Of a stretch of DNA of 46,331 nt, positions 260 to 46,287 are shown one piece after another. The stretch's first letter is position 1, and each line of letters opens with the position of its first letter. Where the stretch lies: the NCBI GenBank assembly GCA_015233355.1, contig JADFXY010000001.1:1-46331 (forward strand). The letters are read 5' to 3'. Below the pieces are notes generated by a model that made no database searches, was not told the origin of the DNA, and saw only the letters and a program-made list of their open reading frames with translations. The DNA comes from Deltaproteobacteria bacterium (GTDB lineage Bacteria; Desulfobacterota; JADFXK01). Made by a program: the position numbers and the translations under genes.

Positions 260-344
260 AATTCTCAGTTATCCTCGCCCCAGATTTAAATCAACCTCCA
301 TGGGAACATGGAATTTTTCAAAAGAATCCAGAGGAGAAAGCATC

Positions 345-1178: not shown

Positions 1179-1192
1179 TGAGGACTTTGATC

Positions 1193-3788: not shown

Positions 3789-3877
3789 CCTGATGTTCCT
3801 GGTCGGCGAAATAAGGCCCCGGTTTAGAAAGCGGCCGGACAGGAACGACATATCCCTAATAAAAAATTAGACTTTTT

Positions 3878-4020
3878 CGACTAGTTTTTTAACTGACTAC
3901 CAGAAATATATCCACAGATTTCTCAGATGAACGCAGATTGAAAAGCCCCACAGACCTATTTGGCCCGAATCTGCGCAAATCGCGCAATCTGCAATTGAAT
4001 CATGGCTCTTGATGGTAATC
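3878..4020. repeat. MITE/REP-like intergenic repeat, copy A (between pstB and phoU)
   Basis: Left arm CCACAGATTTCTCAGATGAACGCAGAT (3912-3938) and an imperfectly complementary right arm ATCTGCGCAAATCGCGCAATCTGCAA (3969-3994), followed by a conserved TTGAATCATGGC tail. Related copies lie at 35611-35760 and 41630-41817, with a degenerate one at 11110-11200. Confidence 0.75.
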
Positions 4021-4125
4021 GCTTAGCATACTAGTCAAACTCAGGTTATGATAGGAAAACGTTTAGTTTTGGTTTTCGATGACGATGAAAGAAGATTCTT
4101 CTATGAGGATTAGGAGGACTTAACC

Positions 4126-4833
4126 TTGGCTATTCCGGAATTCCACAGGCAGATGGACCAGGTGAAAATCGATCTCCTCAAGATGGGTGGATTGGTTGAA
4201 GAAGCAATTGATGATGTCATGCGTTCCCTCTTGTCCAAAGATGCCGACCTGGCCCGAAAATCGATTAATGGGGACAAGCGGATAGACGCCTTGGAAAATG
4301 AAATTGAAGAACGGTGTTTGAAACTTTTGGCCACGCGGCAACCGGTAGCCGTGGACTTAAGGTTCCTGACCTCTGCGATTAAGATTTCCCACTATCTGGA
4401 GCGGATGGGCGACCAATGTGTCAATGTGGCCGAGCGGTCGCTGGATTTGATTCCCTTAGATCCGATAGAAATTCCAAATACTTTGATAGAAATGGGACAA
4501 ATAGCCCAGGAGATGACCCGCAATTGTTTAGAAGGATTTGTCCACCTGGATGTGTCCGCCGCCCAAGAAGTTTGTTGCCGAGATGAAGACCTGGACAATC
4601 TCAACCGGCAATTGCTCGAAGAGATGATCACCTGGATGATGGATGAACGCCGGTTGATCAAACGAGGAGTGGAACTGATCTTAACCGGACGCCATTTGGA
4701 AAGAATCGGCGATGAAGCGACTAATATCTCGGAACAAGTTATCTATCTGGTCAAAGGCAAGGTGATCCGACACCCCGACTTACAGCCGAATAGAACCAAT
4801 CCGTGCCTTGGGCGGGAAGCCGCTAATCTTTAA
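4126..4833 (+). CDS. phoU: Phosphate signalling complex protein PhoU
   Basis: Two PhoU repeats with the hallmark motifs DKRIDALENEIE...LERMGDQCVNVAE and DEDLDNLNRQL...LERIGDEATNISE. TTG start as given in the ORF track. It lies downstream of pstB. Confidence 0.85.
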   Translation: MAIPEFHRQMDQVKIDLLKMGGLVEEAIDDVMRSLLSKDADLARKSINGDKRIDALENEIEERCLKLLATRQPVAVDLRFLTSAIKISHYLERMGDQCVNVAERSLDLIPLDPIEIPNTLIEMGQIAQEMTRNCLEGFVHLDVSAAQEVCCRDEDLDNLNRQLLEEMITWMMDERRLIKRGVELILTGRHLERIGDEATNISEQVIYLVKGKVIRHPDLQPNRTNPCLGREAANL

Positions 4834-4961
4834 GAGAGAGGAGTAAACGCCGGTCGCTGAATACTAATTGCTTATGCCTCAAGATCGTGCAATAGACCAC
4901 CAGTTTTTTACCCAGGGGGGTAAAACATTGACCGTTACTTAATCATAAGGAGAGAAGGGTG

Positions 4962-6209: not shown

Positions 6210-6234
6210 CCGAAAAATTTGATATACATCAAAA

Positions 6235-6274
6235 GGGGTGACGGTTGTTGTCCGACTGTCGCCCCTGTTATTTT
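6235..6274 (+). terminator. Rho-independent terminator after the porin gene
   Basis: GGGGTGAC (6235-6242) pairs with GTCGCCCC (6258-6265), including one G-U pair. A T-rich tract TGTTATTTT follows. Confidence 0.6.
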
Positions 6275-6372
6275 CTGCCTGAATGATTGTCCCGGTCGAA
6301 CAGCCGGGTTCGGTCTCAACTTCAGTTTAGGCGTTCCTCGTTCACTGTTATTGACACTTCAAATATATCCCA

Positions 6373-6401
6373 TCGTAACCATTTTGTAACAACCTTATGG
6401 T
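6373..6401 (+). promoter_or_regulatory. Pho-box-like direct repeat plus -10-like TATGGT upstream of alkaline phosphatase copy 1
   Basis: TCGTAAC catt TTGTAAC (6373-6390), then TATGGT at 6396-6401. The same geometry is repeated upstream of copy 2. Confidence 0.45.
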
Positions 6402-6497
6402 AGGTTCCCCTCAGTTGGATCTGAATCGGATAATATCGTGATTACCGATAGCAACGGATCTCTTGCGGTTTGATTAACACTTTTCAGGGAGGTTGTT

Positions 6498-8018: not shown

Positions 8019-8144
8019 GCTATTCCAGTAATCGCCTGGTTTACTTTCATGGGGGCAGGGTTCGGCTGACAAGCCGTCCTTGCCTTTTCTATTTCAGTTT
8101 GAGAGTTCCTTGCTCATTGATGTTGACACTTCTTTTTCGTCTCA

Positions 8145-8173
8145 TTATAACAATTCTGTAACTACATTATGGT
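8145..8173 (+). promoter_or_regulatory. Pho-box-like direct repeat plus -10-like TATGGT upstream of alkaline phosphatase copy 2
   Basis: TTATAAC aatt CTGTAAC (8145-8162), then TATGGT at 8168-8173. This is the paralogous copy of the 6373-6401 element. Confidence 0.45.
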
Positions 8174-8274
8174 AGGGTTCCCGGGTGTCTGGATATGAAA
8201 CTAAAGATATCATAATTACAGATGCTAACAGGATTTTTCAATTTATTCAAAATTATTTTAAGGAGGCTGTTGGG

Positions 8275-9813: not shown

Positions 9814-9912
9814 ACTATTCCGGCAATCGCTTGTTTTACTAACCTGGGGGCAGGGTCCGGCGTAAAGGCCGTCCTTGCCTCTTCTGTTTTCATTATAACA
9901 GATGGAGAACTG

Positions 9913-11100
9913 ATGCTAATTCTAAATGTAAATCAATTTCTTAAGAATCGCGACGCTGTCCTGGCATTATTCTTAACGGCAATCTGTTTTTTTCTCCTTT
10001 GGGCACCCACCGGGTTTGAGAATAGACAGCCTGCCGGCTCTCAATACGCCAGGGCCCGGATTACCGCTTTAGATAATGCCAGACTCAAACAACACGTCCT
10101 GGTCAAGACGGGGTTCCAGGATCTGACTGTGGAAATACTGGATGGTCCATTCCAGGGCCGGACCGAGCGGGCAGTCAACTATTTGACCGGTAAATTGGAG
10201 ATCGATGAGTTTTATCTGGCCGGCCAGACGATCCTGCTGGAATTCTCGGCCGACCAGGGCCGGATAACCACCTCACATCCGCGGGGCGTTTACCGGCTGG
10301 GGGTGGAGATTTGGCTATTCGGTCTATTCGGCGTGTTGCTGATTGTGTCAGGTGGATGGACTGGATTAAGAGCCCTTTTATCCTTCGTTTTCGCGGCCCT
10401 AATGATCTGGAAGGTGATGGTCCCTTGCTTTTTAAAGGGCTATGATCCGGTGTTGCTTGGATTGGCCGTGGTGACCTGTCTCATTGGAGCCGTCAGCTTT
10501 TTGGTCGGGGGACTAAATCGAACCGGACTGGTCACCTTTCTCGGTTCATTCATCGGACTTAATTTGACCTACCTGTTGTCGAAAATTTTTTATAAGTTGT
10601 TTTGGGTCCACGGAGCTATCCGACCTTTTTCCGAGATGCTCCTCTATACGGGCTTTCCCCACCTCGACCTGGGAAAAATATTCCTTGCCGGGATTTTCAC
10701 AGCGTCATCGGGGGCGATCATGGATGTGGCCATGGATATATCCGTGTCCATGCACGAGTTAAAGCTGAAGAACCCGGATGTTTCTTTGCGAGAACACCTG
10801 GCCTCGGGCATGGCCGTGGGCCGGGCCGTCATCGGGACAATGACCACCACGCTGCTGCTGGCCTATTCCGGCGGATACGTGACCATGTTGATGGTGTTTA
10901 TGGGGCAGGGGATTCCACTCCGAAATATCTTCAACTTGAACCTGGTCTCAGCCGAGGTCCTGGACACGCTGGTGGGAAGTTTTGGAGTCGTCCTGGTGGC
11001 TCCCGTTACCGTTTTGATCGGGGGGCTGATGTTCCGGAGAGGACCCAATGCGGCATTTAATCAGCCTGAAGTGGGACGTAATCAGCCCGAGCTCGATTAG
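9913..11100 (+). CDS. YibE/F-family integral membrane protein
   Basis: One N-terminal TM segment, an extracytoplasmic domain, then about 6 TM segments. The motif SSGAIMDVAMDISVSMHE and the TLLLAYSGGY region recall PF07907 members. This is recognition only, with no search run. Confidence 0.5.
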   Translation: MLILNVNQFLKNRDAVLALFLTAICFFLLWAPTGFENRQPAGSQYARARITALDNARLKQHVLVKTGFQDLTVEILDGPFQGRTERAVNYLTGKLEIDEFYLAGQTILLEFSADQGRITTSHPRGVYRLGVEIWLFGLFGVLLIVSGGWTGLRALLSFVFAALMIWKVMVPCFLKGYDPVLLGLAVVTCLIGAVSFLVGGLNRTGLVTFLGSFIGLNLTYLLSKIFYKLFWVHGAIRPFSEMLLYTGFPHLDLGKIFLAGIFTASSGAIMDVAMDISVSMHELKLKNPDVSLREHLASGMAVGRAVIGTMTTTLLLAYSGGYVTMLMVFMGQGIPLRNIFNLNLVSAEVLDTLVGSFGVVLVAPVTVLIGGLMFRRGPNAAFNQPEVGRNQPELD

Positions 11101-11109
11101 TTTTATGAA

Positions 11110-11200
11110 TTGGACGACAGAAATGTGTCCGCAGATGGATGATGTCCATATCAGCCTGCGATCATAGGTCTTTTTTGTCTGGGCGAACCGAACTATATTT
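11110..11200. repeat. Degenerate copy of the MITE/REP-like repeat
   Basis: CAGAAATGTGTCCGCAGAT matches the left arm. CCTGCGATCAT matches the copy C core. TCTGGGCGAACCGAA matches the right arm (TCTGCGCGAATCGGC). Confidence 0.45.
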
Positions 11201-11361
11201 TGGAGGATGGCCGGGGTTCTTGAAAACGTCAAAATAATTTAACCGGGCTGAGGGGTGACTGTCACACTCTCGTTCTATACTCCATCCGTTGTTTGGGCGA
11301 CCTGAACTGTTCAGGTTCAATCAAGACAAATAATTGATCGTATCAATGAGAGGAGGCCCTA

Positions 11362-13200
11362 TTGCTAGACAAAGCGCGGATAGAGATTAAAGAACCAGGC
11401 CTGGCCACAGACAGCCGCCTTCCTTTGCGGCAATTCCTTTTTCCGACCAACAAAGGGCCGCTGGATCGGATCTTATCGTTTGGCCGGTTAGGAAAAATCT
11501 GTCAAGAAATCTCAGCCATGGGAGGCGAATCCGACTTTCTGGAAAATGCGCTGGAAGCCTTTCACGTCAATTTTGACATCCCGGAAAAAGACCTGAGCCG
11601 AATTCCGGAAAAGGGTCCGGTCGTAGTCGTGGCCAACCACCCCTTCGGCGCGATAGAGGGGATCTTGCTCTACCGGTTGCTTCGGATGATCAGGTCGGAT
11701 GTCAAAATAATGGCCAATCATATCCTGCAGTTGATCCCTGAATTGAGAGACGTGTTGATCATGGTCGATCCTTATGGCACAAGCGGCTCCATAAGCTCTA
11801 ATGTTAACCCTATCCGTAAAACCATTGGCTGGCTCAGGAGCGGTGGGGTAGTCGGTGTTTTTCCGGCCGGCGAAGTCGCCCATATTCAGTTGCGCAAATT
11901 TGAGGTTAGCGATCCGCCGTGGAACCCCAGGCTGGCCCCGATCATAAGAAGGACCCAGGCCGCGGTATTGCCGATCTATTTTTCCGGCCGGAATGGCCTT
12001 CTATTTCAATTGTTGGGTCTGATTCACCCTAAACTCCGGACGGCCATGTTGGCCAGGGAACTGTTGAATAAAACCAACAAGAGCATAACCGTCAGAATCG
12101 GCCGGGTCATTCCTTTTGAGAAATTGAACAAAATCCAAAGCGATGGTCATCTGATAGGTTATTTGAGGACAAGAACATATATGCTCGGTTGCCGCCGGGA
12201 TCAATATCCCAGTCCCTTTATGGCCGGACCGGTTGACCGGTTTGTCAGGACCCGGCCCAAGGTGGCCGACGCGCAAAGGTCCAGCCTGCTTAAACAAGAA
12301 GTCCAGGATTTGCCGCCCGATCATTTGTTGGCGGATAGCCCCGGGCTGAGTGTATATAGGGCGACGGCTTCCCAGATTCCTCATTTACTCCATGAGATCG
12401 GCCGGCTTCGGGAAATCACTTTTCGGCAGGCCAATGAAGGAAGCGGTAAGGCCATTGACCTGGACAGTTTTGACACCTATTACACCCATCTCTTCCTCTG
12501 GGACAAAGAAAAGAGCCGGGTGGCCGGCTCCTACCGGCTGGGGATGACGGACGAGATCGCCGCTCAGGTAGGCGTAAGCGGCCTTTACACCCATGATCTG
12601 TTTGAATATGACTGGCGATTGCTGGACCGGATCGGCCCTGCCCTGGAACTCGGGAGATCCTTCGTCCGGCTGGAATATCAAAAAAACTACCGTCCGTTGA
12701 TGTTGCTGTGGAAAGGCATTGGCCGGATTGTGGCCGCTAATCCCAAGTATAGAATCTTGTTTGGGCCGGTCAGCATCTCCGGTGACTATCGGGCGGCCTC
12801 ACATCAACTGATCGTTTCTTTTCTTAAAGCCAATAACTTGGAGACCGACCTGTCCAGACTGGTTAAGTCTCGGCATCCCATCCGGGCGAAAGCCACGAAC
12901 AAGAGCCTGGTCCAAGAGGCTTTACCCCTGATTCAAGATGTCCGGGATTTATCTGAGATAGTTTCAGATATCGAAGACGACGGGAAAGGCATCCCCATAT
13001 TGCTTAGGCATTATCTTAAGTTGGGGGGGAAGACTCTGGCCTACAGCTTTGACCCCGGCTTCAGCCGCGTGCTGGATGCGCTGATCATGGTGGACTTGAC
13101 CCAAACCGATCCCAAAATTTTGGAAACGTATTTGGAAAAATCCGGGGCGACAACGTTTCTCCGCCACCATTACCTCGATCCCCAAACTCGTGTGGCCTAG
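11362..13200 (+). CDS. Bifunctional O-acyltransferase / N-acyltransferase, OlsF-like aminolipid (ornithine-lipid type) synthase
   Basis: The N-terminal half has lysophospholipid-acyltransferase motifs (VVVANHPFGAIEG, VGVFPAGEV). The C-terminal half has the OlsB/GNAT 'hemolysin-like' pattern (LREITFRQANEGSGKAIDLDSFDTYYTHLFLWDKEKSRVAGSYRLG). TTG start is taken from the ORF track, so the start is uncertain. Confidence 0.6.
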   Translation: MLDKARIEIKEPGLATDSRLPLRQFLFPTNKGPLDRILSFGRLGKICQEISAMGGESDFLENALEAFHVNFDIPEKDLSRIPEKGPVVVVANHPFGAIEGILLYRLLRMIRSDVKIMANHILQLIPELRDVLIMVDPYGTSGSISSNVNPIRKTIGWLRSGGVVGVFPAGEVAHIQLRKFEVSDPPWNPRLAPIIRRTQAAVLPIYFSGRNGLLFQLLGLIHPKLRTAMLARELLNKTNKSITVRIGRVIPFEKLNKIQSDGHLIGYLRTRTYMLGCRRDQYPSPFMAGPVDRFVRTRPKVADAQRSSLLKQEVQDLPPDHLLADSPGLSVYRATASQIPHLLHEIGRLREITFRQANEGSGKAIDLDSFDTYYTHLFLWDKEKSRVAGSYRLGMTDEIAAQVGVSGLYTHDLFEYDWRLLDRIGPALELGRSFVRLEYQKNYRPLMLLWKGIGRIVAANPKYRILFGPVSISGDYRAASHQLIVSFLKANNLETDLSRLVKSRHPIRAKATNKSLVQEALPLIQDVRDLSEIVSDIEDDGKGIPILLRHYLKLGGKTLAYSFDPGFSRVLDALIMVDLTQTDPKILETYLEKSGATTFLRHHYLDPQTRVA

Positions 13201-13850: not shown

Positions 13851-14246
13851 AAATTGTAGTCTTATGTCCTTAACTTTATCCTCACTATTCGGGATAAAGA
13901 TGGATCTATTCTGCAGTCATTATATCTTTATTTTTGAATAAACAATATTCCGCCACCCACATTTTTAACCCACAAAATTCTTTCTTATATCTTTAAGTTG
14001 TTGCCTTACACCGGTAACCGTAACATGAGATAATAGACCAACATATTCGGTTTCTTTGCTATCGGCCGGATCAAACCAGGTGATATAAGCTGGGTTCGGT
14101 AAGAGGAGACTTTCCCCATAACCATACACTTTGAAAGGCTCTCGCAAAACTCAATAAAAACATCACCCCGGCGAAAGCCGATGTCCGAAAGACATTGAAA
14201 GGCCAGGCTTCAAGTTTTGGTCCAAATGACATTGAAGGAGAATAAA

Positions 14247-15794
14247 ATGGACAAAGAAGAGAAGAATACGACGGGTTTGACGAGAAGGCAAATGTTGACG
14301 GCTTCCGGATTAGCCTTGGGTGGGTTTCTTATCGACCAAGCAATTCCCGGAATAAACGAAGTTCGCGGAAATGACGGCTGTACCTGTCCCAGCGGGCCAA
14401 CGTGCAACTGGGAAAATACACCAAGTTCACAGGTTTATACCTACTTTGACTCGCTGCCTCCTTTCTATCCATTCGATTCAAGCACAAAGACAAACATTGT
14501 ACCCTTGGGAGAAAACGAAATGCGGATCACCTTCATGGGGTCTTCCATTCCTCCCACCTTGCGCCATAAGCAACAGATGATGAGTGTGTTTGTCGAAGTT
14601 GGCTGGGATAAAGACAAACAGATGCCGATCGACCAGTTTGTTTTCGACTGCGGATCGGGAGTATGCACTAATTACAGTTCCATGAACGTCGGATTCGGGA
14701 GGATGAATAAGGTCTTTATTAACCATCTTCACGGGGATCACATGTCCGATCTGACTCATATCTACTGCTTCGGACCTTCCGGGGATCGTCAATTTCCCCT
14801 GTATGTCTGGGGGCCAAGCGCGTCGGGGGTAGAGAGTCCCAAAGGTTCCGGGAGATATTATGACGACGGGGTGAAAGCTTTCTGCACTCATCTTCGCCGG
14901 GCTTGCCGATGGCACACGGAGAGTTTCAGCTTTCAATCCACCAGCTATTCCGGTTATCAGGTTCCAACAAAGAAAAGTTGGGGGTTGCCGTGCGATCCTG
15001 TTCCCGTTGAGGATGATGCGCCGAATGATGGATATGCTCTGGTTCCGATTGAGCTGAACTGGAGGAAATATTGAAATGATGAAGGAGATAACGTTGCTTA
15101 TCACGATCCGGCTACAGGTGTAAATATAACGCAATTCCCCGTTATCCAAGCCCGGCATGGCTCCATCGTCTATAAATTATATTGGTACGGGCTGACCATG
15201 ATCTACACCAGCGATACCAAGCCTGAGTATAACAGCATTATCCAGGCGTCCAATAAGGGCAAGGGTGTGGATGTGTTAATTCACGAGATGATAGTCCCGG
15301 CTCAGGTGTGGGCCATGAAACTTGCACATCAATCCACACTTCCAGATCCAACCAGCCCCAGCGTCCAGTGGGCGACAATGGTTCAAAACAGCTCCCACAG
15401 TCCGCAGGGGGCTTTCGGTTATCTTCTGAGCCAAATAAAACCTCGACCGCGTCTTACCGTGGCCACGCATTTTCCGGTAGCCGATGACACTGTTGCCTGT
15501 GCCCTGAAGAGCGTGAACGATCACTGCCCCGATGTTCAAATGGGTAAGGATTTGATTTGGAGCTTCGACCTGATGACTATAACGGTCTCCAAAGACAAAA
15601 TTACCCCAATGAAAGGAGTTGTGTCGGATTTCAGCTTCTCTCCGACGGTAAATTTACCTTCTGGTACACCGAATGTGCCGAAGTATCACGATGCCAGCGG
15701 CAATGGTGACCCCTATGCCCAAATTTGCACGGATACGGCGGTTCCGGCTTGCGGAGATAATAATGAGTGCAATTACCGGACAGATGGGTATTAA
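14247..15794 (+). CDS. Tat-exported metallo-beta-lactamase-fold hydrolase (RNase Z / phosphodiesterase-like), interrupted by one in-frame TGA at 15072-15074
   Basis: The two ORFs 14217-15074 and 15198-15794 are in the same frame, and codons 15075-15197 are open. Twin-arginine signal TRRQMLTASGLALGG. MBL motifs are distributed across both halves: HLHGDHMSDL before the TGA, then ARHG, IYTSDT, LIHEM and VATHF after it. ATG at 14247 follows AAGGAG. Confidence 0.7.
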
Positions 15795-35610: not shown

Positions 35611-35760
35611 CGACCAGTTTTTTAATTAACTACCAAAAAAATGAATCCGCAGATTTCTCAGATCAACGCAGATGGAAATGACCCACCGACCTGTAACGGT
35701 CCGAATATGCGCTAACCAGTGCAATCTATCGGATTGAATCATGGCCCTTTATGATAAATG
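35611..35760. repeat. MITE/REP-like intergenic repeat, copy B
   Basis: CGACCAGTTTTTTAATTAACTACCAAAAAAATGAATCCGCAGATTTCTCAGATCAACGCAGAT...ATTGAATCATGGC. It is collinear with copy A across about 140 bp. The right arm is more degenerate. Confidence 0.7.
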
Positions 35761-35805
35761 TTACATTAAGGTGAAATCCGCTGTTGTGACCGAGTTATCA
35801 GGTAA

Positions 35806-35823
35806 TCGTCACTGTGCTGTAAC
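35806..35823 (+). promoter_or_regulatory. Pho-box-like direct repeat upstream of the CheY-like/arsC-like/phoB gene group (TCGTCAC tgtg CTGTAAC)
   Basis: Same 7+4+7 architecture as at 242-259, and nearly the same sequence (GTCAC-N6-GTAACAAT). It lies about 200 nt upstream of the ATG at 36029. Confidence 0.4.
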
Positions 35824-36028
35824 AATATGATGTTACCTTAACAACGTCTTTGAGACTTCAACCCGGCCGATATCAGCGAATGGTCGGCTGAAGTGAAAAA
35901 GTACGCCGATTGCAAGCCTGGAAACTGTTTTGTCCGGGATGGAAGGACTCAAAAATTTGTTGGCCAAATTCAAGCGAACCGACGATTATTTCAACCAAGA
36001 TTAAATTGCGGGATAACCAGGAGACTTT

Positions 36029-36934: not shown

Positions 36935-37630
36935 ATGTCCCAGGTGAACATATTAGTGGTGGAAGATGAGCAGGATATTCTCGACCTGGTGGAATACAAT
37001 CTTCAGCAAGAGGGCTTCCATGTCCTGCGGGCGATGGATGGACTGGCCGGAATTCAACTGGCCAAAAAAGAACGTCCTGATCTGGTCATCCTCGACCTCA
37101 TGCTGCCCAAGATGGATGGCAAGGAGGTTTGCCGCTCTATCCGCCAGGATGGCGAGACCAGTACCATGCCGATCATGATGCTGACGGCCAGGGCTGAAGA
37201 GATTGACCGGGTCATTGGGTTTGAACTGGGCGCGGACGATTACTTGACCAAGCCGTTCAGCCCCCGGGAACTGGTCCTTCGGGTCAGGGCCGTGCTCAGG
37301 CGGTTAAAAGATAAGGTGACATCTAATTCACTTATCCGATTTCCAGGCATCCTGATTGATCCGGAGAAGCATCGGGTCGAAATCGATGAACAGGATGTCC
37401 GATTGACCGCCACCGAGTTCAGATTGTTGCAATGTCTGGCGGCCAATTCAGGCAATGTCTTGACCAGGGAGGATTTGCTCGACCAGGTCTGGGGTTATGT
37501 TTATGATGGTTACGCCCGGACGGTCGATACCCATATCCGACGGCTCCGGAAGAAAATGGGTAATCAACAAGAACGGATCGATACTATTCGAGGTGTGGGA
37601 TATCGATTTCGGTCCGACCAGTTACAGTGA
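36935..37630 (+). CDS. phoB: OmpR-family winged-helix response regulator, PhoB-like
   Basis: Collinear by eye with E. coli PhoB (ILVVEDE..., DLVILDLMLP, MLTARAEEIDRVIGFELGADDYLTKPFSPRELVLRVRAVLRR, TATEFRLL, RTVDTHIRRLRKK, IRGVGYRF). No histidine kinase gene is adjacent. Confidence 0.75.
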   Translation: MSQVNILVVEDEQDILDLVEYNLQQEGFHVLRAMDGLAGIQLAKKERPDLVILDLMLPKMDGKEVCRSIRQDGETSTMPIMMLTARAEEIDRVIGFELGADDYLTKPFSPRELVLRVRAVLRRLKDKVTSNSLIRFPGILIDPEKHRVEIDEQDVRLTATEFRLLQCLAANSGNVLTREDLLDQVWGYVYDGYARTVDTHIRRLRKKMGNQQERIDTIRGVGYRFRSDQLQ

Positions 37631-37818
37631 GAGCGGTTGTCGGGTAATCGTCACCGAGTCTGCGTCGAAGTCCGCCCAAACCCGGTCAAATGTATCTAAC
37701 GGCCATGCCTGAGTCATTAATTCGTGACCGGACTAGACTCAGGCCGGCTTGCCCGGCGGGCGTTTGTTTTGTGCTATGCCCTTTTTAATATTCATTGATG
37801 CAATTTTCAGGAGGAACC

Positions 37819-38364
37819 ATGGGATCCCGTGAAATAAAGATAGAAAAAGTATTGAGCGTAGAAGAACTCTCCGGCTTTTTCAACCAGGTGATTGAAGGTC
37901 TGGAAGCGGCTAATTCGCTCAATGAACTGGGAGTTGATTTGCATGATTTCAGTAAAGTGTCTATCAGTCTCAAACGCCGTCAAGGTCAGGTGATGATGAA
38001 GTTAAAGGTAGAGCATGATCGGACTGCTTCGGGAGAGGAGGAAGACCTTATTGAAACAGATCATCCGGACCAGATCGCCACAAAATACAAAACCCTCAAG
38101 AAATCAATGAAAACCGGGATGAAGGTGATGGCCCAGTTCTTGAGCAATAATGAATTGCCGCCGAGGCTGGTGGTCCAGTCCTTCTTGAGCCAGGCCAATC
38201 AGATGATCACCTTTCCGGGCAAAGGGGACGAACATTATCTGGAGTTCGGTAAAGAATGTGATGACCTTAAGGTGGCATTCGACCAGGGCGACGTCAACTT
38301 AATGAGAATCAAGTGCGATGCACTGAACAGCCTCAAAAAGCAATGTCATGCCCAATTCAAGTAA
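37819..38364 (+). CDS. Amphi-Trp-like N-terminal domain protein with a C-terminal domain ending in a ...KQCH motif (candidate 'XXXCH-domain' protein)
   Basis: ATG at 37819 after AGGAGG. The N-terminus IKIEKVLSVEELSGFFNQVIEGLEAA...VMMKLKVEH parallels the three small paralogues downstream, with His where they have Trp. The C-terminus is ...ALNSLKKQCHAQFK. Confidence 0.5.
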   Translation: MGSREIKIEKVLSVEELSGFFNQVIEGLEAANSLNELGVDLHDFSKVSISLKRRQGQVMMKLKVEHDRTASGEEEDLIETDHPDQIATKYKTLKKSMKTGMKVMAQFLSNNELPPRLVVQSFLSQANQMITFPGKGDEHYLEFGKECDDLKVAFDQGDVNLMRIKCDALNSLKKQCHAQFK

Positions 38365-38396: not shown

Positions 38397-39554
38397 ATGG
38401 ATAACATTGATATTGAAACGGATACAGGCTGCGACCTCCTGGAAGACCTCCCGGACGAAGTGTCTGAAGCTGACGAACGGAATTTTCTAGGGCTTATTTC
38501 CACGGAACTCACTCCGAAGCAACGGGAAGAAATAGTCATTCCCCCGGTAGTTTTTCCGGAGCAGCAAAATGTTCTGGCGGTCCACTGGCATCCCGAGCAT
38601 GTCCCCTTAGACCTGATCGCCCGACGGATTGATGCGACCTTTCCCAATAAAACTGACGAGCTGATCATTCCGACCCAACATAATGTTTTGATGCGATATA
38701 ATGAGTGGTTCGGCGTGGAGGTCGATTGTTATTCGACCGGATTTAATCAAAAGGTCCAACTCCTGCTGCATTTCCACCACAGCAAGGAAGAAAAGGCCGG
38801 TGTCTTGAAATCCATGCTGACTTACACCTTCAAGTACCGGTCGCAGCAATTGTTTGATTATATCGAGACCATCGTTAAACCCCACCGGGACAGGCTGGAG
38901 CAGGCGGCCCGGATTACCGGGACAGATGAAAAGGTTATTGATCTGGTCATTAATTATGTCAAGCACCTGGTCCAGTTGTTGGAGCGGCATCGGGCGGCGG
39001 TATCGCCGGAGATGCTCAAAAATAAGTTATTACGGGATTTTTTCGACACCCTGCGGCCCCAATATGGACACGGGACGATTAATCGGGCCCAGGCTTTTTT
39101 GCGGGCGGTGAAGGAAATCGTCAAGGCTGATTTTCCCTTGCAGTATTTCTTTAGGACCTCTGAAATCATAGAGGAGGCCCGGTGTCTCGGATGCGGTATC
39201 TTGGTGCCCCATCCGGAGCAATTTTGGCCGATCTTGTTGGCGGAATATGATCTGGACGGTTATGAGGTCTGGAATCCTCAATCCCGAAAGTATACTGAAT
39301 TCTTGATTTCAGTGGTAGATCGAAGCAATCGCCGACAGGGCCCATCAAGGAGAAAGATGCTCCTGTTCATGGGTGACGACACCCACCTGGGCGAGAAGCT
39401 AAAGGATCCATCAGCTCAGTATCCGGATAAGGCCTGCCGGGAGATCGGCGTTCATCCCGCCTGGGATGATCTTAGTATCCGGAAAAAGATGATTTCGGCC
39501 GCGATGGATCGGCGGCAAGTCATTATTGAGTACCGCGACCGGCTGCTGGGGTAA
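38397..39554 (+). CDS. Hypothetical protein with PHP-domain-like motif series (TrpH/YciV-like phosphoesterase architecture)
   Basis: Ordered motifs: AVHWHPEH (HxH), IIPTQHN (xxH), FGVEVD (GxE), LLLHFHH, then a ~130-aa helical insert, then LVPHPEQF (HP), LDGYEVWN (xE.xN) and FMGDDTHLG (GDDxH). There is an acidic N-terminal extension. Motif-level recognition only. Confidence 0.4.
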   Translation: MDNIDIETDTGCDLLEDLPDEVSEADERNFLGLISTELTPKQREEIVIPPVVFPEQQNVLAVHWHPEHVPLDLIARRIDATFPNKTDELIIPTQHNVLMRYNEWFGVEVDCYSTGFNQKVQLLLHFHHSKEEKAGVLKSMLTYTFKYRSQQLFDYIETIVKPHRDRLEQAARITGTDEKVIDLVINYVKHLVQLLERHRAAVSPEMLKNKLLRDFFDTLRPQYGHGTINRAQAFLRAVKEIVKADFPLQYFFRTSEIIEEARCLGCGILVPHPEQFWPILLAEYDLDGYEVWNPQSRKYTEFLISVVDRSNRRQGPSRRKMLLFMGDDTHLGEKLKDPSAQYPDKACREIGVHPAWDDLSIRKKMISAAMDRRQVIIEYRDRLLG

Positions 39555-39668: not shown

Positions 39669-39941
39669 ATGTCCCAAAATGAAAAATTCGAATACGAATC
39701 CATTCAAGATAACGCCAGCGTTAGAAATTTTATCCAGTCTTTGCTTGATGGGATAGAGCAAGGCCGCATTATCCTGCAATCAAACGAGGATGAGATTATC
39801 ATGCATCCAAATAATTTACTCAAGCTTTCGGTCAAGGCCCGGAAAAAAGACGATCAAGGCCGGCTGAACATTAAGGTCTCGTGGAAAGAATCTAAATCTT
39901 CCGTCATCACCACACCGAACTCACTCAGGGTAACCGCGTAG
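39669..39941 (+). CDS. Small amphi-Trp domain protein (90 aa)
   Basis: KFEYESIQDNASVRNFIQSLLDGIEQGRIILQSNEDEIIMHPNNLLKLSVKARKKDDQGRLNIKVSWKE. This pattern is shared with 43929 and 44214. GGAGG RBS. Confidence 0.6.
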   Translation: MSQNEKFEYESIQDNASVRNFIQSLLDGIEQGRIILQSNEDEIIMHPNNLLKLSVKARKKDDQGRLNIKVSWKESKSSVITTPNSLRVTA

Positions 39942-39944
39942 GCC

Positions 39945-41594
39945 ATGCTAAATTTTGAAGGAATAGAAGAAAATCTTAAGTTTATCGTGCTGGAGACGCA
40001 GACTCAGGTCAGCGCCACTCGCGACTTGCTCCGGAATCGGAGTCAGATAGAATATGAAAGAATCGTCTCTCGCGACGATTACATCGATAATCTGAAAAAT
40101 CTTATCGAAAGCAGTTGCTTCACCAGGCTGGCCTCCGACCGGTTACTGGGCAAGGAAGAAATCAATGAAATAAGGGCAGTCCAAATAATTTGTATTAACC
40201 TGGAACGGATTGCCGATTACTCGGTTAATATCAGCCGGCAGATGGGCTACATGGATGAAGCTGAGTTTATTCATGAATTTGACTTCGAAAGTGTATTCCC
40301 AAAGATATCGGAAGGTATTTCCAGTATCTACACCGTGTTAAAGGATCGGAATCTGGCCGGGGCCTTAACCATCTGCCGGGTCGAATACGCCCTCGATGAA
40401 TGGTATAAGGTTAGTTTCGACGCCATCATGGATCGGCTAAGAGGCGGGCAAAACATCCAAAATTTGATTACCGTGCTCTTTATCTTTCGGTACTTGGAGC
40501 GGATTGGCGATGCCCTGCTCAACATCGGTGAGGCCTTGATTCTGGCCATCATCGGCGAAAAGATCAAGATTCACCAGTTCCAGGCTCTCCAGGAAACACT
40601 GTCCCGGTCGGGATTTGAGGGCAACCTGGAAGAACTCGATGTCCATTCAATTCTGGGCAGTAGGTCCGGCTGCATCATCAACCGGCTGGAGCAGCGGCGG
40701 TCCAATTGGTCCCAGGCACAAGAGAGTATCTTCAAGGAAGGCAACCTGCAAAAAATCCGCCGTGAAAAAGCCAACTTGGAACTGTGGGCGGAAAAGTATC
40801 CCGGTCTGACTCCCAAAATTTTAGGCTATTATGAGGAAGGCGACAAGGGCGCGCTGCTGGTCCAGTTTTTGGCCGGGTGCACCTTAGATGAAGTCATCCT
40901 GAATGCCGCGGAGGAACCGCTTCGGAATGCTTTCTTTATCCTGAAGCAAATACTCGAAGAAGTGTGGCGGCAGACCCGGCAGGACGGTCCTATGGCCACC
41001 GACTATCTCAACCAGATCCGGGCCAGACTGCCTCAGATTCACCGAGTCCATGAAAATTTTTCGCGGCCGGCCAAATATCTGGGCGTGACCAAGGTCGCCT
41101 CATCCGAAGAGCTTTTGTCTGCTTGCTCAGAAATTGAGAGCCGGCTTCCCGCACCCTTTGCCGTGTTGATTCATGGTGATTTCAACGTCAACAATGTCGT
41201 TTACAACCATGAACTGCAACGGGTCCACTTCATTGACCTGTACCGGTCCAGGTATGCCGATTACGTGCAAGATGTCTCGGTCTTTCTCATCTCGAATTTC
41301 AGGATCCCGGTTTTTGATGAAGAACTGAGATCCAGGTTAAACTGGATCATCGAAAAATTCTATGAGTTCTCCAGCCAATTGGCCTTGAGTTGGCAAGACC
41401 GGACGTTCAACGCCCGGCTGGCCCTGGCCCTGTCCAGATCCTTTTATACCTCCACCAGATTTGAATTAAACAAGGAATTCGCCCGAGAGATGTATTTGCG
41501 GGCTCATTTCTTAATGGAAAAAGTGGCCGGATATGGCGCGGCCGGCGGGTCCTGGACGGATTTTGTCTTTCCATTGTCTGTATTATATTATTAA
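39945..41594 (+). CDS. PhoU-domain / aminoglycoside-phosphotransferase-type kinase fusion protein
   Basis: The N-terminal ~210 aa hold two PhoU repeats (DDYIDNLKNLIE...NLERIADYSVNISRQ; LDEWYKVSFDAIMDRL...YLERIGDALLNIGEA). The C-terminal ~260 aa have the APH/choline-kinase catalytic loop LIHGDFNVNNVVY and VHFIDLYRS. The start is 4 nt after the preceding stop. Confidence 0.7.
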   Translation: MLNFEGIEENLKFIVLETQTQVSATRDLLRNRSQIEYERIVSRDDYIDNLKNLIESSCFTRLASDRLLGKEEINEIRAVQIICINLERIADYSVNISRQMGYMDEAEFIHEFDFESVFPKISEGISSIYTVLKDRNLAGALTICRVEYALDEWYKVSFDAIMDRLRGGQNIQNLITVLFIFRYLERIGDALLNIGEALILAIIGEKIKIHQFQALQETLSRSGFEGNLEELDVHSILGSRSGCIINRLEQRRSNWSQAQESIFKEGNLQKIRREKANLELWAEKYPGLTPKILGYYEEGDKGALLVQFLAGCTLDEVILNAAEEPLRNAFFILKQILEEVWRQTRQDGPMATDYLNQIRARLPQIHRVHENFSRPAKYLGVTKVASSEELLSACSEIESRLPAPFAVLIHGDFNVNNVVYNHELQRVHFIDLYRSRYADYVQDVSVFLISNFRIPVFDEELRSRLNWIIEKFYEFSSQLALSWQDRTFNARLALALSRSFYTSTRFELNKEFAREMYLRAHFLMEKVAGYGAAGGSWTDFVFPLSVLYY

Positions 41595-41629
41595 GTATAA
41601 CCTGACTTCGGCAAGTCTTATTGATTGGG

Positions 41630-41817
41630 AAACTGAAATGTATCCGCAGATTTCGCAGATGAACGCAGATGAAAGCGACCCACAGGCCATGCGATCATTT
41701 GCTTGACTTTGGCCGGCCGTGGCTTGAATACAAGCCTTCGGACACAAACGTTTTGTTTTTTTAATCTGCGCGAATCGGCGCAATCTGCGGATTGAATCAT
41801 GGCGTTGAAGTTGATAC
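41630..41817. repeat. MITE/REP-like intergenic repeat, copy C (long-core variant)
   Basis: Left arm CCGCAGATTTCGCAGATGAACGCAGAT (41644-41670). Right arm ATCTGCGCGAATCGGCGCAATCTGCGG (41764-41790), whose reverse complement CCGCAGATTGCGCCGATTCGCGCAGAT matches the left arm. Conserved tail ATTGAATCATGGC. Confidence 0.75.
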
Positions 41818-41870: not shown

Positions 41871-42806
41871 GTGACCAGAATTGGTGTGGTTGGAATCAAA
41901 GGAAGCTGGTCTTCGGAAAAGTTGGCCGACGCGGTAGCTGAGATGACCGGCTTTAGGCTATTGATCGGCATGGATGAAGTAAGTTTGGACTTTGAATCGG
42001 GGCGGGCGTTTTTCCAGGGATGTGATTTGACCGAACTCGATGCTTTGATAATCAAGAAGATCGGCCTCACCTACTCGCCCAGCCTGCTGGACCGGTTGGA
42101 AGTCTTGCGTTATCTCAATAGCCGCGGCCTGCCCATGTTCTCCAAACCGGGCAACATCATTGGCGTCTTGAACCGGCTGTCTTGCACCGTCACCTTGCAA
42201 TCGGCCGGTATCCCCATGCCGCCGACTACTATCACCGAAGACGTTACCGAGGCCTTGAAGGCCGTCTCCGAGTATGGAGAAGCCGTTTTTAAACCTCTTT
42301 ACACGTCAAAGGCCCGCGGTATGGTGGTCATTAAGTCCGGTTATGGGACGAAGGAGGCCATCGAATCCTACCGGAGCGAATATTCCTCCATGTATATCCA
42401 AAAGAAGATAGATATCCCAGGTAAGGACCTGGGGGTGGTGTTTTTGGGCGGCGAATACCTGACCACCTATGCCCGATGCCGGGTCCCCGGTTCATGGACC
42501 ACGACTACTTTTTTCGGAGGCCAATATGAACCGTATGATCCGCCGCCGGCCATTATTGACTTAGCCGGCCGGGCCCAAAGTTGCTTTGGCCTGGACTTTA
42601 CCTGTGTTGACGTGGCCGAGACCGGTGCCGGACCGGTTGTCTTTGAAGTATCGGCTTTTGGAGGATTTCGGGGCTTGGAAAAGGCCCAGGGCATTGACGC
42701 CGCCGAGAAGTACGTCACCTATGTTTTAGCGAGGCTCGCATCATGGAAGAAAATCCCATCTCAGCCCTTGACCTCATTAGCCGGTTGCGGACAACGTACC
42801 CGGTAA
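41871..42806 (+). CDS. RimK-like ATP-grasp ligase
   Basis: GTG start after AAAGGAG. ATP-grasp pattern: AVFKPLYTSKARGMVVIK, MYIQKKIDIPGKDLGVVFLGGEYL, FTCVDVAETGAGPVVFEVSAFGGFRGL. Confidence 0.7.
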   Translation: MTRIGVVGIKGSWSSEKLADAVAEMTGFRLLIGMDEVSLDFESGRAFFQGCDLTELDALIIKKIGLTYSPSLLDRLEVLRYLNSRGLPMFSKPGNIIGVLNRLSCTVTLQSAGIPMPPTTITEDVTEALKAVSEYGEAVFKPLYTSKARGMVVIKSGYGTKEAIESYRSEYSSMYIQKKIDIPGKDLGVVFLGGEYLTTYARCRVPGSWTTTTFFGGQYEPYDPPPAIIDLAGRAQSCFGLDFTCVDVAETGAGPVVFEVSAFGGFRGLEKAQGIDAAEKYVTYVLARLASWKKIPSQPLTSLAGCGQRTR

Positions 42807-43828
42807 CCACCGGCCTCAACCTGGTTTTTGGACAGGTGAGAATAGCCTTAAAGACAAATCAGCCGACCCTGGTGGATGTATTAGAGGAGTATTTCGGGTC
42901 GTTCGTCTCCACGGAAGGTCCCGCCGACATCACCATTACCGCCCATGAAGCTCCAATTCAGACCTTTCCGTTCTCCTTCACTCAGAAGACGCCGGACCCC
43001 GGTAAGACGAAGGTAAAGGAAGAATATGTGGAACTCGATGATGGGCGGATCGTCCGCAAACGACTGACCGGTCTCTGTTTCGTCTTTAACAGCCGGGAAC
43101 ACCTGGCTATCGGGCCTTGCCTGAGTAATGCCAATCAAATCGTTAATTTTATCAATAATCGTTATATCCAGTGGAAGCTTCACCGGGGCTGCTTGCTGGG
43201 CCATGCCGCGGGAGTCTTGTATCATGGCCGCGGGCTGGCCTTGGCCGGGTTTTCCGGAATGGGCAAATCTACCCTGGCCCTGCACCTGGTCAGCCGAGGG
43301 ACATCTTTTGTCAGTAACGACCGGTTGCTCATCTCTCCCAGCGGCTCCGGCCTGGAGATGAACGGCGTGGCCAAACTCCCCCGGATCAACCCTGGGACCG
43401 TTTTGAACAATCCTATGCTCTCCTCCGTGATTCCGGAAGAGGAGAAAGCGGCGTTTAAGTCTCTCCCTAAGGAAGAGCTATGGGATCTTGAACACAAATA
43501 TGATGTGCCGATCGGTGGAATTTTTGGCCCGTCGCGATTCGCCTTGTCGGCGCCGATGGTGGGTTTGGTCATTTTGAACTGGGACCGGACCGAAGCCCCG
43601 GTGACGGCACAGGAGGTTGATCTGGATCAGCGACGGGATTTGCTGGCCGCCTTCATTAAGTCAGAGGGGTTGTTTTACTTGCCGCTCAACGACGAGTCCG
43701 AACACGACCGTTCGGCCGCGGCCTACATAACCTTTTTGTCTCGATGCCGGGTCTGGGAGATTCGGGGGGGCACGGATTTTTATGCCGCTGCGAATATTTG
43801 TTTCCGGTTCCTTGAGACTCAGGGATAA
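42743..43828 (+). CDS. HprK/P-related P-loop kinase
   Basis: GRGLALAGFSGMGKSTLALHLVSRGTSFVSNDRLLI resembles the HPr kinase/phosphorylase P-loop region (G.SG.GKSE.AL.L...GH.LV.DD). It overlaps the ATP-grasp gene by 64 nt. Confidence 0.6.
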   Translation: MEENPISALDLISRLRTTYPVTTGLNLVFGQVRIALKTNQPTLVDVLEEYFGSFVSTEGPADITITAHEAPIQTFPFSFTQKTPDPGKTKVKEEYVELDDGRIVRKRLTGLCFVFNSREHLAIGPCLSNANQIVNFINNRYIQWKLHRGCLLGHAAGVLYHGRGLALAGFSGMGKSTLALHLVSRGTSFVSNDRLLISPSGSGLEMNGVAKLPRINPGTVLNNPMLSSVIPEEEKAAFKSLPKEELWDLEHKYDVPIGGIFGPSRFALSAPMVGLVILNWDRTEAPVTAQEVDLDQRRDLLAAFIKSEGLFYLPLNDESEHDRSAAAYITFLSRCRVWEIRGGTDFYAAANICFRFLETQG

Positions 43829-43895: not shown

Positions 43896-44445
43896 CGTTA
43901 AATAACCCCAGGTAGAAAGGTAGAGACGATGGACAAGCCGAAGATAGAATTAAAGAATACTATAGGCCGAAATGAAGTGATCACCTATTTAGAAGGACTC
44001 GTCGAAGGCTTCAAGGCCGGAAAGATCGTGTTGGAGCAAGGCGACCTGATCCTTGAGATGACTGTTCCCGAAGTGGTCCAGGTTGAAGTGGAAGCCGGAC
44101 AAAAGAAGGATAAGGCCAAGTTTGCGCTGGAACTAACCTGGGACCAAGTCACTGATTCCAAATAATTTGACCCCTTGCCTCGTTAAATAACCCCGGGTAG
44201 AAAGGTAGAGTCGATGGATAAGCCGAAGATAGAATTAAAGAATACTATGGGCCGAAATGAAGTGATCACCTATTTAGAAGGACTCGTCGAAGGCTTCAAG
44301 GCCGGGAAGATCGTGTTGGAGCAAGGATACCAAATCCTCGAGATGACTGTTCCCGAAGTGGTCCAGGTGGAAGTGGAAGCTAAACAAAAGAAGGATAAGG
44401 CCAAGTTTGCGCTGGAACTAACCTGGTATCAAATTGCTGATCCAG
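43896..44445 (+). repeat. Tandem duplication (285-bp offset) covering RBS and most of two amphi-Trp genes
   Basis: 43896-44160 and 44181-44445 are near-identical (CGTTAAATAACCCC[A/G]GGTAGAAAGGTAGAG[A/T]CGATGGA[C/T]AAGCCGAAGATAGAATTAAAGAATACTAT...). They diverge only after ...LELTW. Confidence 0.85.
43929..44165 (+). CDS. Small amphi-Trp domain protein (78 aa)
   Basis: MDKPKIELKNTIGRNEVITYLEGLVEGFKAGKIVLEQGDLILEMTVPEVVQVEVEAGQKKDKAKFALELTWDQ. RBS GAAAGG. Confidence 0.6.
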   Translation: MDKPKIELKNTIGRNEVITYLEGLVEGFKAGKIVLEQGDLILEMTVPEVVQVEVEAGQKKDKAKFALELTWDQVTDSK

Positions 44446-44684
44446 ATGAATGTGACTCCGTCAAGATCTCGGGCCAAAACCCGGAGAAGGCGGTTTTAGC
44501 CGCAGGATTTGAGGAAGTCGGCGACAAAGAGCCAACGTTGGACAATAATGAGCATAGGTTGTGTATCGATGCCAAGGAAGAGTGCCTCCTTACCATTACG
44601 GTGAAGGAAGAAACCGAACTGGAGTCCGCTGAAAAGGAGTCTGACCGCTTGCTCCGAATCGGCGAAGAGCAATACACATCTTAA
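44214..44684 (+). CDS. Amphi-Trp domain protein with acidic C-terminal extension (156 aa)
   Basis: The first ~72 aa are almost identical to 43929-44165. A ~80-aa Glu/Asp-rich tail follows, ending EEQYTS. Confidence 0.6.
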   Translation: MDKPKIELKNTMGRNEVITYLEGLVEGFKAGKIVLEQGYQILEMTVPEVVQVEVEAKQKKDKAKFALELTWYQIADPDECDSVKISGQNPEKAVLAAGFEEVGDKEPTLDNNEHRLCIDAKEECLLTITVKEETELESAEKESDRLLRIGEEQYTS

Positions 44685-46159: not shown

Positions 46160-46268
46160 CCCCTACCTCAATGTCATTGACTTAAGGTGCAAGGTCATCG
46201 GATTCTATTCTAATAAATGGTTAATTCCGATGAAGCCCTGAAAGGGCGCTCTAGGTTAGCCCAGGGCA

Positions 46269-46287
46269 ACGCCCTGGGTAGGGGTGG
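46269..46287. other. GC-rich hairpin downstream of the phosphohexomutase gene
   Basis: CCCAGGGC aac GCCCTGGG. No U-tract follows, so it is not a canonical terminator. It may be a REP-type element. Confidence 0.3.

Follow-up and report, generated by a model that had tools for sequence, protein, structure and literature searches.

The 46,331-nucleotide (nt) stretch of DNA analyzed here, contig JADFXY010000001.1 from a Deltaproteobacteria bacterium (positions 1 to 46,331 of the forward strand; hereafter the window), carries a gene that encodes a PhoU domain and a kinase of the APH type as one polypeptide of 549 amino acids (aa). The gene is an exact ATG-to-stop open reading frame (ORF) and lies in an operon of the computationally defined GAK system (TIGR04354–04358), of which it is, by gene content and synteny, a constant core member that has no model of its own. 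The genes, protein segments and candidate regulatory sites are collected in Table 1.

Table 1. Positions in the window of the genes, protein segments and Pho-box-like sites, with the basis of each assignment
Feature	Position	Strand	Basis
Canonical stand-alone phoU, after pstSCAB	4126..4833	+	TIGR02135, 205 bits vs cut-off 130
Two strong Pho-box-like sites, upstream of response regulator/ArsC-like/PhoB-like genes	35757..35826	.	<=1 mismatch; position weight matrix (PWM) ranks 3 and 4
PhoB-like OmpR-family response regulator, directly upstream of operon	36935..37630	+	TIGR02154 best, 255.6 bits, cut-off 296
Moderate Pho-box-like site GGTTGTCGGGTAATCGTCACCGA, directly upstream of GAK operon	37635..37657	+	PWM score 8.8, rank 19 of ~92,000
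GAK-system XXXCH-domain protein	37795..38364	+	TIGR04358, 86.8 bits
Uncharacterized 385-aa protein, PHP-like metal-dependent phosphoesterase fold	38397..39554	+	AlphaFold2 (AF2) and Foldseek, synteny
Amphi-Trp protein, 90 aa, upstream-coupled	39669..39941	+	TIGR04354 / PF20068, synteny
PhoU-kinase fusion gene, 549 aa	39945..41594	+	ORF, Pfam PhoU x2 + APH + EcKL, homologues, two confident domains in AF2
PhoU six-helix bundle, residues ~4-206	39954..40562	+	Pfam, 4q25 profile match, Foldseek, invariant columns
Linker helix K208, Q211, F212, L215, L219 into glycine-rich loop G238-x-R-S-G-C, residues 207-259	40563..40721	+	Invariant/near-invariant columns; low confidence in AF2
APH/EcKL-type kinase core, residues 260-549	40722..41591	+	Pfam, Foldseek to APH(3')-Ia/MTR kinase, invariant residues
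Kinase catalytic loop H410-G-D412-x-N414-x-x-N417	41172-41195	+	Invariant in 94 homologues
Kinase metal-binding D431	41235-41237	+	Invariant in 94 homologues
GAK-system ATP-grasp ligase (RimK/MptN/LysX-related)	41871..42806	+	TIGR04356, 436.7 bits vs cut-off 300
HprK-related kinase B, P-loop GFSGMGKST	42743..43828	+	TIGR04355, 511.6 bits vs cut-off 200
Downstream amphi-Trp protein, 78 aa	43929..44165	+	TIGR04354, 62.9 bits
Downstream amphi-Trp protein, 156 aa, acidic tail	44214..44684	+	TIGR04354, 69.2 bits

Results and Discussion

Domain Architecture of the PhoU–Kinase Fusion

Pfam matches PF01895 (PhoU) in two stretches of the fusion protein (E 4e-21, above the gathering score), PF01636 (APH) on residues 267–461 (E 3e-9, 37.4 bits versus a gathering score of 23.2) and PF02958 (EcKL) in the same protein (E 2e-10, 41 bits versus 22), and both kinase families are matched in 26 of 26 members of the fusion family. 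Compared with the PDB, a profile of 94 homologues covers the entire chain of the PhoU structure 4q25 (E 2.5e-17) and matches APH weakly, around the catalytic loop (PDB sequence E 0.014). The AF2 model (mean predicted local distance difference test (pLDDT) 86.6, predicted template-modeling score (pTM) 0.59) contains two confident domains, residues 4–206 and 260–549, with pLDDT below 50 across residues 207–259 between them. In Foldseek the PhoU half of this model superposes on the crystal structures 4q25, 1t72, 2i0m and 1sum with template-modeling (TM) scores of 0.77–0.86, and the C-terminal half on APH(3')-Ia (4feu), APH(3')-IIIa and methylthioribose (MTR) kinase (2pul) with TM scores of 0.4–0.55, at a Foldseek probability of 1.0 for 4feu and 2pul. 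Pfam, the PDB profile and Foldseek thus agree on PhoU-like N-terminal repeats and an intact C-terminal kinase fold, as had been proposed from the sequence alone.

Across the 94 homologues each PhoU repeat keeps a pair of E/D-x3-D motifs (D44/D45/D48 and E87/D91, then E147/D151 and E185/D189), and the kinase keeps G238, S241, G242, K264, E274, H410-G-D412, N414, N417 and D431, an invariance far beyond chance. Roles were assigned to the kinase residues by position, with K264 as the β3 lysine, E274 as the αC glutamate and the remainder as catalytic and metal-binding residues. The C-lobe is helical and Arg-rich, with many of the arginines invariant. The motifs quoted in the preliminary description (DDYID at 44–48, LERIADYSVNI at 86–96, LERIGDALLNI at 184–194, HGDFNVNN at 410–417 and IDL at 430–432) are all present, and its two PhoU repeats stand, except that a literal D..ID is not found in each, repeat 2 reading E147-YAL-D151. 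The kinase likewise occupies the C-terminal half as described, with an N-lobe that begins near residue 230 and not at ~290.

Scores against the NCBIfam equivalog models are far below every cut-off: 70.1 bits versus 130.25 for TIGR02135 (PhoU), 35 versus 342 for NF008332 and 38 versus 205 for NF033068 (APH(3')), with other APH models lower still. By these scores the fusion is not an orthodox PhoU, and it is not a resistance enzyme either; an aminoglycoside resistance gene is ruled out. Judged from these sequences, it is an obligate two-domain protein, made up of a complete PhoU bundle, a conserved helix and an APH/EcKL-fold kinase with every catalytic residue, and we infer that it would work like a sensor-domain-gated kinase. 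One alternative would be a pseudokinase or scaffold, in which the kinase-like half binds only nucleotide or a partner and the protein serves as a PhoU-type regulator of the neighboring enzymes; the low confidence at which the glycine loop and the β1–β2 hairpin are modeled and the moderate similarity to APH structures (TM ~0.5) are in keeping with it. We consider it very improbable in view of the invariance of Lys264, Glu274, His-Gly-Asp412, Asn417 and Asp431 in 94 sequences and the retention of the catalytic residues even in members of 33–40% identity in which the PhoU motifs have decayed.

Conservation and Taxonomic Spread

Homologues of the fusion fall into 1,277 clusters at E<=1e-3 in a large protein collection. 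The best ~120 are essentially all full-length proteins of 537–592 aa with the same architecture and 50–56% identity, the exceptions being one relative of 85% identity and one partial sequence of 353 aa; they are named "PhoU domain-containing protein", "phosphotransferase" or "phosphate uptake regulator" in databases. As to taxonomic spread, which the preliminary description had suggested examining, relatives are encoded in 430 species-representative genomes, chiefly of Desulfobacterota (Desulfobacterales and Desulfovibrionales for the most part); a few belong to Zixibacteria and Eisenbacteria. With the kinase half alone as query against 1.84 billion proteins, only 342 representatives are returned at E<=1e-3, and these are in almost every case 530–620 aa long with the kinase at ~225–550, down to 33% identity. 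Three of the four short matches examined start within the last PhoU helix and are thus best taken as N-terminally truncated fragments; the fourth starts at the glycine loop, and no complete unfused relative of the kinase is clearly seen among them.

The window spans a complete contig of a metagenome-assembled genome, and two genes joined through a frameshift or a sequencing error would give an artificial fusion, a possibility for which we found no point in favor. The same architecture in the best ~120 matches, which stem from independent genomes and metagenomes and include complete genomes, the conserved linker between PhoU and kinase and the fragment-like appearance of the matches examined that are devoid of the PhoU half leave this explanation practically no credence, and we regard a frameshift or assembly artefact as ruled out by the conserved full-length architecture. 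The covalent joining of PhoU and kinase put forward at the outset is thus genuine.

Gene Content and Order of the GAK Operon

Synteny was examined in 80 loci from other species, with denominators counting the loci that have enough flanking sequence. The conserved order is phosphoesterase, amphi-Trp, PhoU-kinase, ATP-grasp, HprK-like kinase, an optional CofD-like protein and a further amphi-Trp. An amphi-Trp gene is found directly upstream of the fusion gene in 76 of 76 loci and the gene of the 385-aa PHP-like protein nearby in 70 of 72; ATP-grasp (73 of 76) and HprK-B (67 of 69) genes are nearly as constant, and genes for the XXXCH-domain protein and the CofD-like protein (TIGR04357) occur at 47 of 65 and 52 of 65 loci, respectively. 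The window resembles the GAK system as modeled in that four of its five modeled components are present in the conserved order, with the fusion between them; it differs in that the PhoU-kinase and the PHP-like protein are unmodeled although at least as constant as the modeled parts. The library used returned no dedicated model for either protein.

The amphi-Trp protein encoded ahead of the fusion carries a near-invariant F7-x3-S11-x-Q13-D14 motif, in which Ser11 is 97% conserved, and an invariant W72. Its stop codon, at 39941, lies 3 nt ahead of the fusion ATG, and the gap has a median of ~6 nt across related loci, bearing out the translational coupling suggested earlier. The two genes (39669–41594) are in the same frame and are separated by TAG GCC alone, such that read-through of the stop would yield a single polypeptide. 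A natural amphi-Trp–PhoU–kinase fusion was not found among the homologues, the longer of which have mis-called starts or loop insertions.

Several further observations concern the other operon genes. The likely true start of the XXXCH gene is the ATG at 37820, with AGGAGG in front. As listed, the ATP-grasp (41871–42806) and HprK-B (42743–43828) ORFs share 64 nt; HprK-B probably starts at a later position than listed, and the genes would then abut or overlap slightly, as in relatives. The tandem amphi-Trp genes at the end of the operon are nearly identical over the first ~72 codons and have a common repeated upstream sequence, GTTAAATAACCCC[AG]GGTAGAAAGGTAGAG, which suggests that they duplicated recently; in the second copy a long acidic tail follows at the C terminus. 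In Desulfovibrio caledoniensis (L027, 15659–16884) a ParA/MinD-type ATPase gene followed by an amphi-Trp gene lies just past the GAK operon, a hint that ParA-like positioning ATPases may be partners of some amphi-Trp proteins. In a proteomics table for Dissulfuribacter, one of the 20 proteins of highest abundance is an amphi-Trp protein.

The seven operon proteins gave zero matches to PADLOC defense families, and weak TCAD9 Pfam matches stay under the gathering score; the reading as a defense system was rejected. Rfam has no match within the operon. Our literature searches turned up nothing relevant on the GAK system, on amphi-Trp, on the HprK-related kinase or on fusions of PhoU domains, and no expression data from a carrier organism. 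Dde_3780 of Desulfovibrio alaskensis G20, described as a "phosphate transport regulator" near a PhoR homologue, was rejected as an orthologue; its annotation reads "distant homolog of PhoU" (probably of the PitR type), and its listed neighbors, CobT for example, are unrelated.

Phosphoesterase-Like Partners and a Second Operon Variant

The 385-aa protein is extremely conserved, with His/Asp/Glu-rich motifs in which H63-x-H65, H95, E108, D110, H125, H272 and D328-x-H330 are invariant. Each named member among its 1,632 homologues is a "hypothetical protein", a Pfam domain is absent from all of them, no Pfam (PHP included) or NCBIfam model matches it, and a sequence-profile search against the PDB found nothing. 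Its AF2 model (pLDDT 90.7, pTM 0.88) has as its sole significant structural neighbors the PHP phosphoesterases 3o0f and 3e0f and RNase AM (9etk), all at a Foldseek probability of 1.0, but the TM scores against 3o0f and 9etk are only 0.4–0.5. In the model H63-x-H65 follows the strand 58–61 and D328-x-H330 the strand 322–325, where PHP motifs belong. The protein is a putative metal-dependent phosphoesterase, with a PHP-like fold as modeled.

In a second variant of the operon, seen in another lineage, the order is His_Phos_1 phosphatase, Metallophos–amphi-Trp, an optional small amphi-Trp, PhoU-kinase, ATP-grasp, HprK-like, an optional CofD and amphi-Trp, and the F..(E/D)S motif is retained by the amphi-Trp unit that adjoins the kinase. 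Here the PHP-like and XXXCH genes are replaced by unrelated phosphoesterases, with amphi-Trp and PhoU-kinase staying in place. A 1009-aa protein (P0336) combines Metallophos, two PhoU repeats and APH in one chain; it is known from a single contig and is to be treated with caution. In its N-terminal half it is a member of a protein family of 558–629 aa, of which those scanned consist of a calcineurin-like phosphoesterase with a C-terminal amphi-Trp. Taken together, the replacement of the phosphoesterase and the domain fusions argue that phosphoesterase, amphi-Trp and PhoU-kinase are functionally tied. The closest relative (L001, 1–1410), whose fusion is 85% identical, lacks a PHP-like gene ahead of the amphi-Trp gene, and its XXXCH gene is apparently frameshifted and preceded at ~200 nt by strong tandem Pho boxes; the contig is of low coverage, so this may reflect decay or an assembly error.

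Phosphate Island and Pho Boxes

The window is a phosphate-limitation island, with pstSCAB-phoU, two alkaline phosphatases, an OlsF-like ornithine-lipid synthase and several hybrid histidine kinases. The region 1–13200 holds pstS-C-A-B, phoU, the two alkaline phosphatase genes, which have near-identical upstream regions, a gene for a YibE/F-like membrane protein and that for the OlsF-like bifunctional synthase (404 bits, under the cut-off of 620), and Pho-box-like sites precede most of its genes. Directly ahead of the GAK operon lie genes for a receiver protein, an ArsC-like phosphatase and the PhoB-like regulator. The canonical phoU reported in the preliminary description is identified as such by its equivalog model (Table 1).

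PhoB binding sites are built from direct repeats with 11-bp spacing. The pattern TGTMAY-N5-TGTMAY, with <=1 mismatch, occurs seven times in the window, five or six of these being upstream of pstS, of both phoA-like genes and of the PhoB-like cluster, where the strong sites lie at 35757 and 35804. Of the 81 such sites in the 80 related loci, 32 lie within 1 kb ahead of the first GAK gene, a 13-fold enrichment in density; they come from 21 of 61 eligible loci (21 of 63 relatives in another count). Their distance to the first ORF, which they precede, is 25–260 nt (median ~88); 28 of the 32 are found on the coding strand, and tandem pairs in 11-bp register are frequent. Permuted half-site controls gave mostly 0–8 matches; two exceeded this range, namely MAYTGT, which is the motif itself shifted in phase, and YTTGMA, for which we have no explanation. 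A PWM trained solely on sites of other genomes and then run on the window has among its best matches the upstream regions of the pstS, PhoB-cluster, phoA and olsF-like genes. Pho-type genes lie within 10 kb of the operon in 12 of 48 loci. The phosphate link drawn at the outset is thus real, and the operon appears, as far as such sites can tell, to be switched on by phosphate starvation. In five loci of the Desulfomicrobium group (L031, L035, L047, L057 and L059) a second, divergent cluster of Pho-box-like sites stands downstream of the GAK operon, ~7.3–7.6 kb from the start of the fusion gene, and marks a probable Pho-regulated gene pair.

It had further been supposed that the fusion offers a regulatory route independent of PhoR, no phoR being present. 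Indeed, no histidine kinase in the window reaches the cut-off of the PhoR model. At the transcriptional level the supposition gains no support: the operon looks PhoB-controlled, with a PhoB-like gene directly upstream, and its expression would therefore depend on the PhoR/PhoB system.

The same island bears on whether the PhoU half is a docking module that attaches to PstB and/or PhoR, like canonical PhoU, and delivers the kinase to the phosphate-signaling complex, there to modify Pst, PhoR, PhoB or PhoU with the amphi-Trp proteins as accessories. E. coli PhoU contacts PstB and PhoR, the PhoU half of the fusion aligns along full canonical PhoU with its motifs kept, and pstSCAB-phoU is located in the same window and also near the operon in several relatives. 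Against this, the PhoU half shares only 24% identity with the resident PhoU (BLASTP) and reaches 70 bits where the equivalog cut-off is 130, the fusion gene is tied to GAK genes in essentially every locus and to pst genes in about one quarter, and the PhoU motifs decay in distant members in which the operon context persists. We therefore hold the docking reading to be improbable; it and the pseudokinase reading are the less likely ones.

Other Features of the Window

An intergenic repeat of 150–190 bp with internal inverted repeats is present in three full copies (3880–4030, 35615–35770 and 41612–41810), where none is expected by chance, and in a partial copy near 11120–11150. Its core reads CAGATTTC[TG]CAGAT[GC]AACGCAGAT ... 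AATCTGCG ... TTGAATCATGGC, and the element looks like a miniature inverted-repeat transposable element (MITE) or a repetitive extragenic palindromic (REP)-type element. The copy downstream of the fusion gene folds as a long hairpin (z = -3.2) and accounts for the long gap of 277 bp before the ATP-grasp gene, which in most relatives measures 10–100 bp. Elsewhere, the adjacent ORFs 14217–15074 and 15198–15794 match model positions 8–143 and 190–319 of one GntH-like hydrolase model of the metallo-β-lactamase (MBL) fold and may represent a single gene that was disrupted or split. An Acido-Lenti-1 small RNA motif is matched at 46234–46278 on the reverse strand, where the contig ends (Rfam, 44.7 bits versus a gathering score of 37).

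Relation to Known Systems

The targets of canonical PhoU, PhoR and PstB, are separate proteins on which it acts in trans, and this action is hard to reconstitute. The fusion shares with it two repeats in a six-helix bundle, paired E/D-x3-D motifs, a TM score of ~0.8 and a gene link to phosphate homeostasis. It departs from it in placement, canonical PhoU being a stand-alone protein of ~235 aa encoded after pstB and the present domain the N-terminal half of a 549-aa enzyme in a GAK operon, and in output, which is directed at PhoR/PstB in trans in the one case and would be a kinase in cis in the other. In the Na/Pi cotransporter NptA, which carries a C-terminal PhoU domain, a PhoU-type module is likewise attached covalently to a protein that it presumably regulates in phosphate homeostasis, the partner there being a transporter and here a soluble kinase. 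A 2026 survey of PhoU clades took only PhoU proteins without additional Pfam domains (PMC13170248).

With the APH, choline kinase and EcKL families (PF01636, PF01633 and PF02958) the kinase half has in common a bilobal fold, the H-G-D-x4-N loop, the metal-binding Asp, the β3 Lys and the αC Glu; unlike them it is very divergent, has a family-specific Arg-rich C-lobe and is essentially always fused to PhoU. Two further systems offer parallels to the operon. HPr kinase/phosphorylase is a dedicated kinase of a serine in a small protein, and inorganic phosphate directly affects its kinase/phosphorylase balance. The operon likewise holds an HprK-related enzyme and a small protein with a candidate serine; the amphi-Trp protein, the phosphorylation of which we infer, is unrelated to HPr, and the fold of the PhoU-kinase differs from that of HprK. 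In the LysW/LysX/LysZ system a small carrier protein is loaded by a RimK/LysX-type ATP-grasp enzyme and a kinase acts on the loaded group. The GAK ATP-grasp protein matches the LysX model at 82 bits, and the analogy, which is one of gene content, is limited by the absence of an acidic C-terminal EDWGE-type tail from amphi-Trp and by the different kinase families.

Proposed Mechanism

We tentatively propose that the fusion is a PhoB-induced, PhoU-gated kinase that would act on the coupled amphi-Trp protein, a reading that we consider plausible though still short of probable. Phosphate starvation would, through PhoB, induce the operon. The PhoU module would set kinase activity according to phosphate status, either by binding phosphate or metal or by contacting the Pst/PhoR complex, and gating would proceed via the conserved linker running into the glycine loop. 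The kinase would then phosphorylate a hydroxyl on the co-translated amphi-Trp protein, for which the near-invariant Ser11 of F-x3-S-x-QD is the best candidate, or alternatively a group attached to amphi-Trp by the ATP-grasp ligase, and the neighboring phosphoesterase would take off the mark.

A number of observations weigh against this proposal. On the regulatory side, the site directly upstream of the operon in the window is moderate (rank 19), a terminator-like hairpin (37747–37761) stands between the PhoB-like gene and the operon, and a Pho box with <=1 mismatch is confined to roughly one third of relatives. Concerning gating, the inter-domain geometry is uncertain (pTM 0.59), with the glycine loop modeled at low confidence, and the most distant family members have degenerate PhoU motifs and intact kinase motifs, so that ligand binding by the PhoU half may not be essential everywhere. 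As to gene content, the CofD-like gene carried by most relatives (52 of 65) is absent from this window by tblastn. Finally, most of the related kinases in the Pfam families APH, EcKL and choline kinase act on small molecules, and a protein substrate is therefore not the default expectation.

This last point leads to the main rival, in which the fusion is a small-molecule kinase of a biosynthetic or salvage pathway. The ATP-grasp, the CofD-like phosphotransferase and the phosphoesterases would act on the same free metabolite that the kinase phosphorylates, a phosphorylated and glutamylated compound would be made or recycled under phosphate stress, the amphi-Trp proteins would be scaffold, carrier or regulator, and the PhoU half would remain a regulator. 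The nearest families of the kinase (APH, EcKL, choline kinase and MTR kinase) are in line with such a role, as are the nearest relatives of the ATP-grasp (the cofactor glutamate ligase MptN, RimK and LysX), the frequency of the CofD-like gene and the many invariant C-lobe arginines, which would fit an anionic small ligand. We nevertheless deem it rather unlikely, albeit a contender of substance: the amphi-Trp gene precedes the kinase gene at near-zero spacing in all 76 loci, the phosphoesterase–amphi-Trp fusion of the second operon variant is more easily explained if amphi-Trp itself is acted upon, and the CofD-like gene is dispensable, being missing here and in ~20% of loci.

The proposed PhoU-gated kinase may be extended to the operon at large, which would then form a hitherto unnoticed post-translational layer of phosphate signaling or buffering among sulfate reducers and related bacteria, a PhoB-induced write/erase cycle on amphi-Trp in which PhoU reads cytoplasmic phosphate without PhoR. 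The writers would be the PhoU-gated kinase and the HprK-like kinase/phosphorylase, the targets the abundant amphi-Trp proteins and the erasers the interchangeable phosphoesterases (PHP-like, or Metallophos and His_Phos_1). In this extended form the reading is speculative, and we regard it as doubtful.

Conclusions

The fusion sequences and their domain architecture are already public in databases. What is new is the reading, drawn from comparative sequence analysis, of the protein as an obligate PhoU-kinase and core GAK component, of the operon as a predicted member of the Pho regulon, and of the kinase as paired with interchangeable phosphoesterases. A conserved helix wires the PhoU bundle to the nucleotide-binding loop of the kinase, and effects of phosphate or metal on PhoU could therefore be read as the kinase activity of one protein. 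The replacement of one phosphoesterase by non-homologous ones points to a module of reversible phosphorylation around the amphi-Trp proteins. The GAK neighborhood thereby gains a probable physiological setting, phosphate starvation, and two unmodeled core parts, the PhoU-kinase and the putative PHP-like phosphoesterase, in a family that spans at least 430 species-level genomes, mainly of environmentally important Desulfobacterota. If the write/erase reading were true, this would be the first PhoU domain with an enzymatic output in the same polypeptide.

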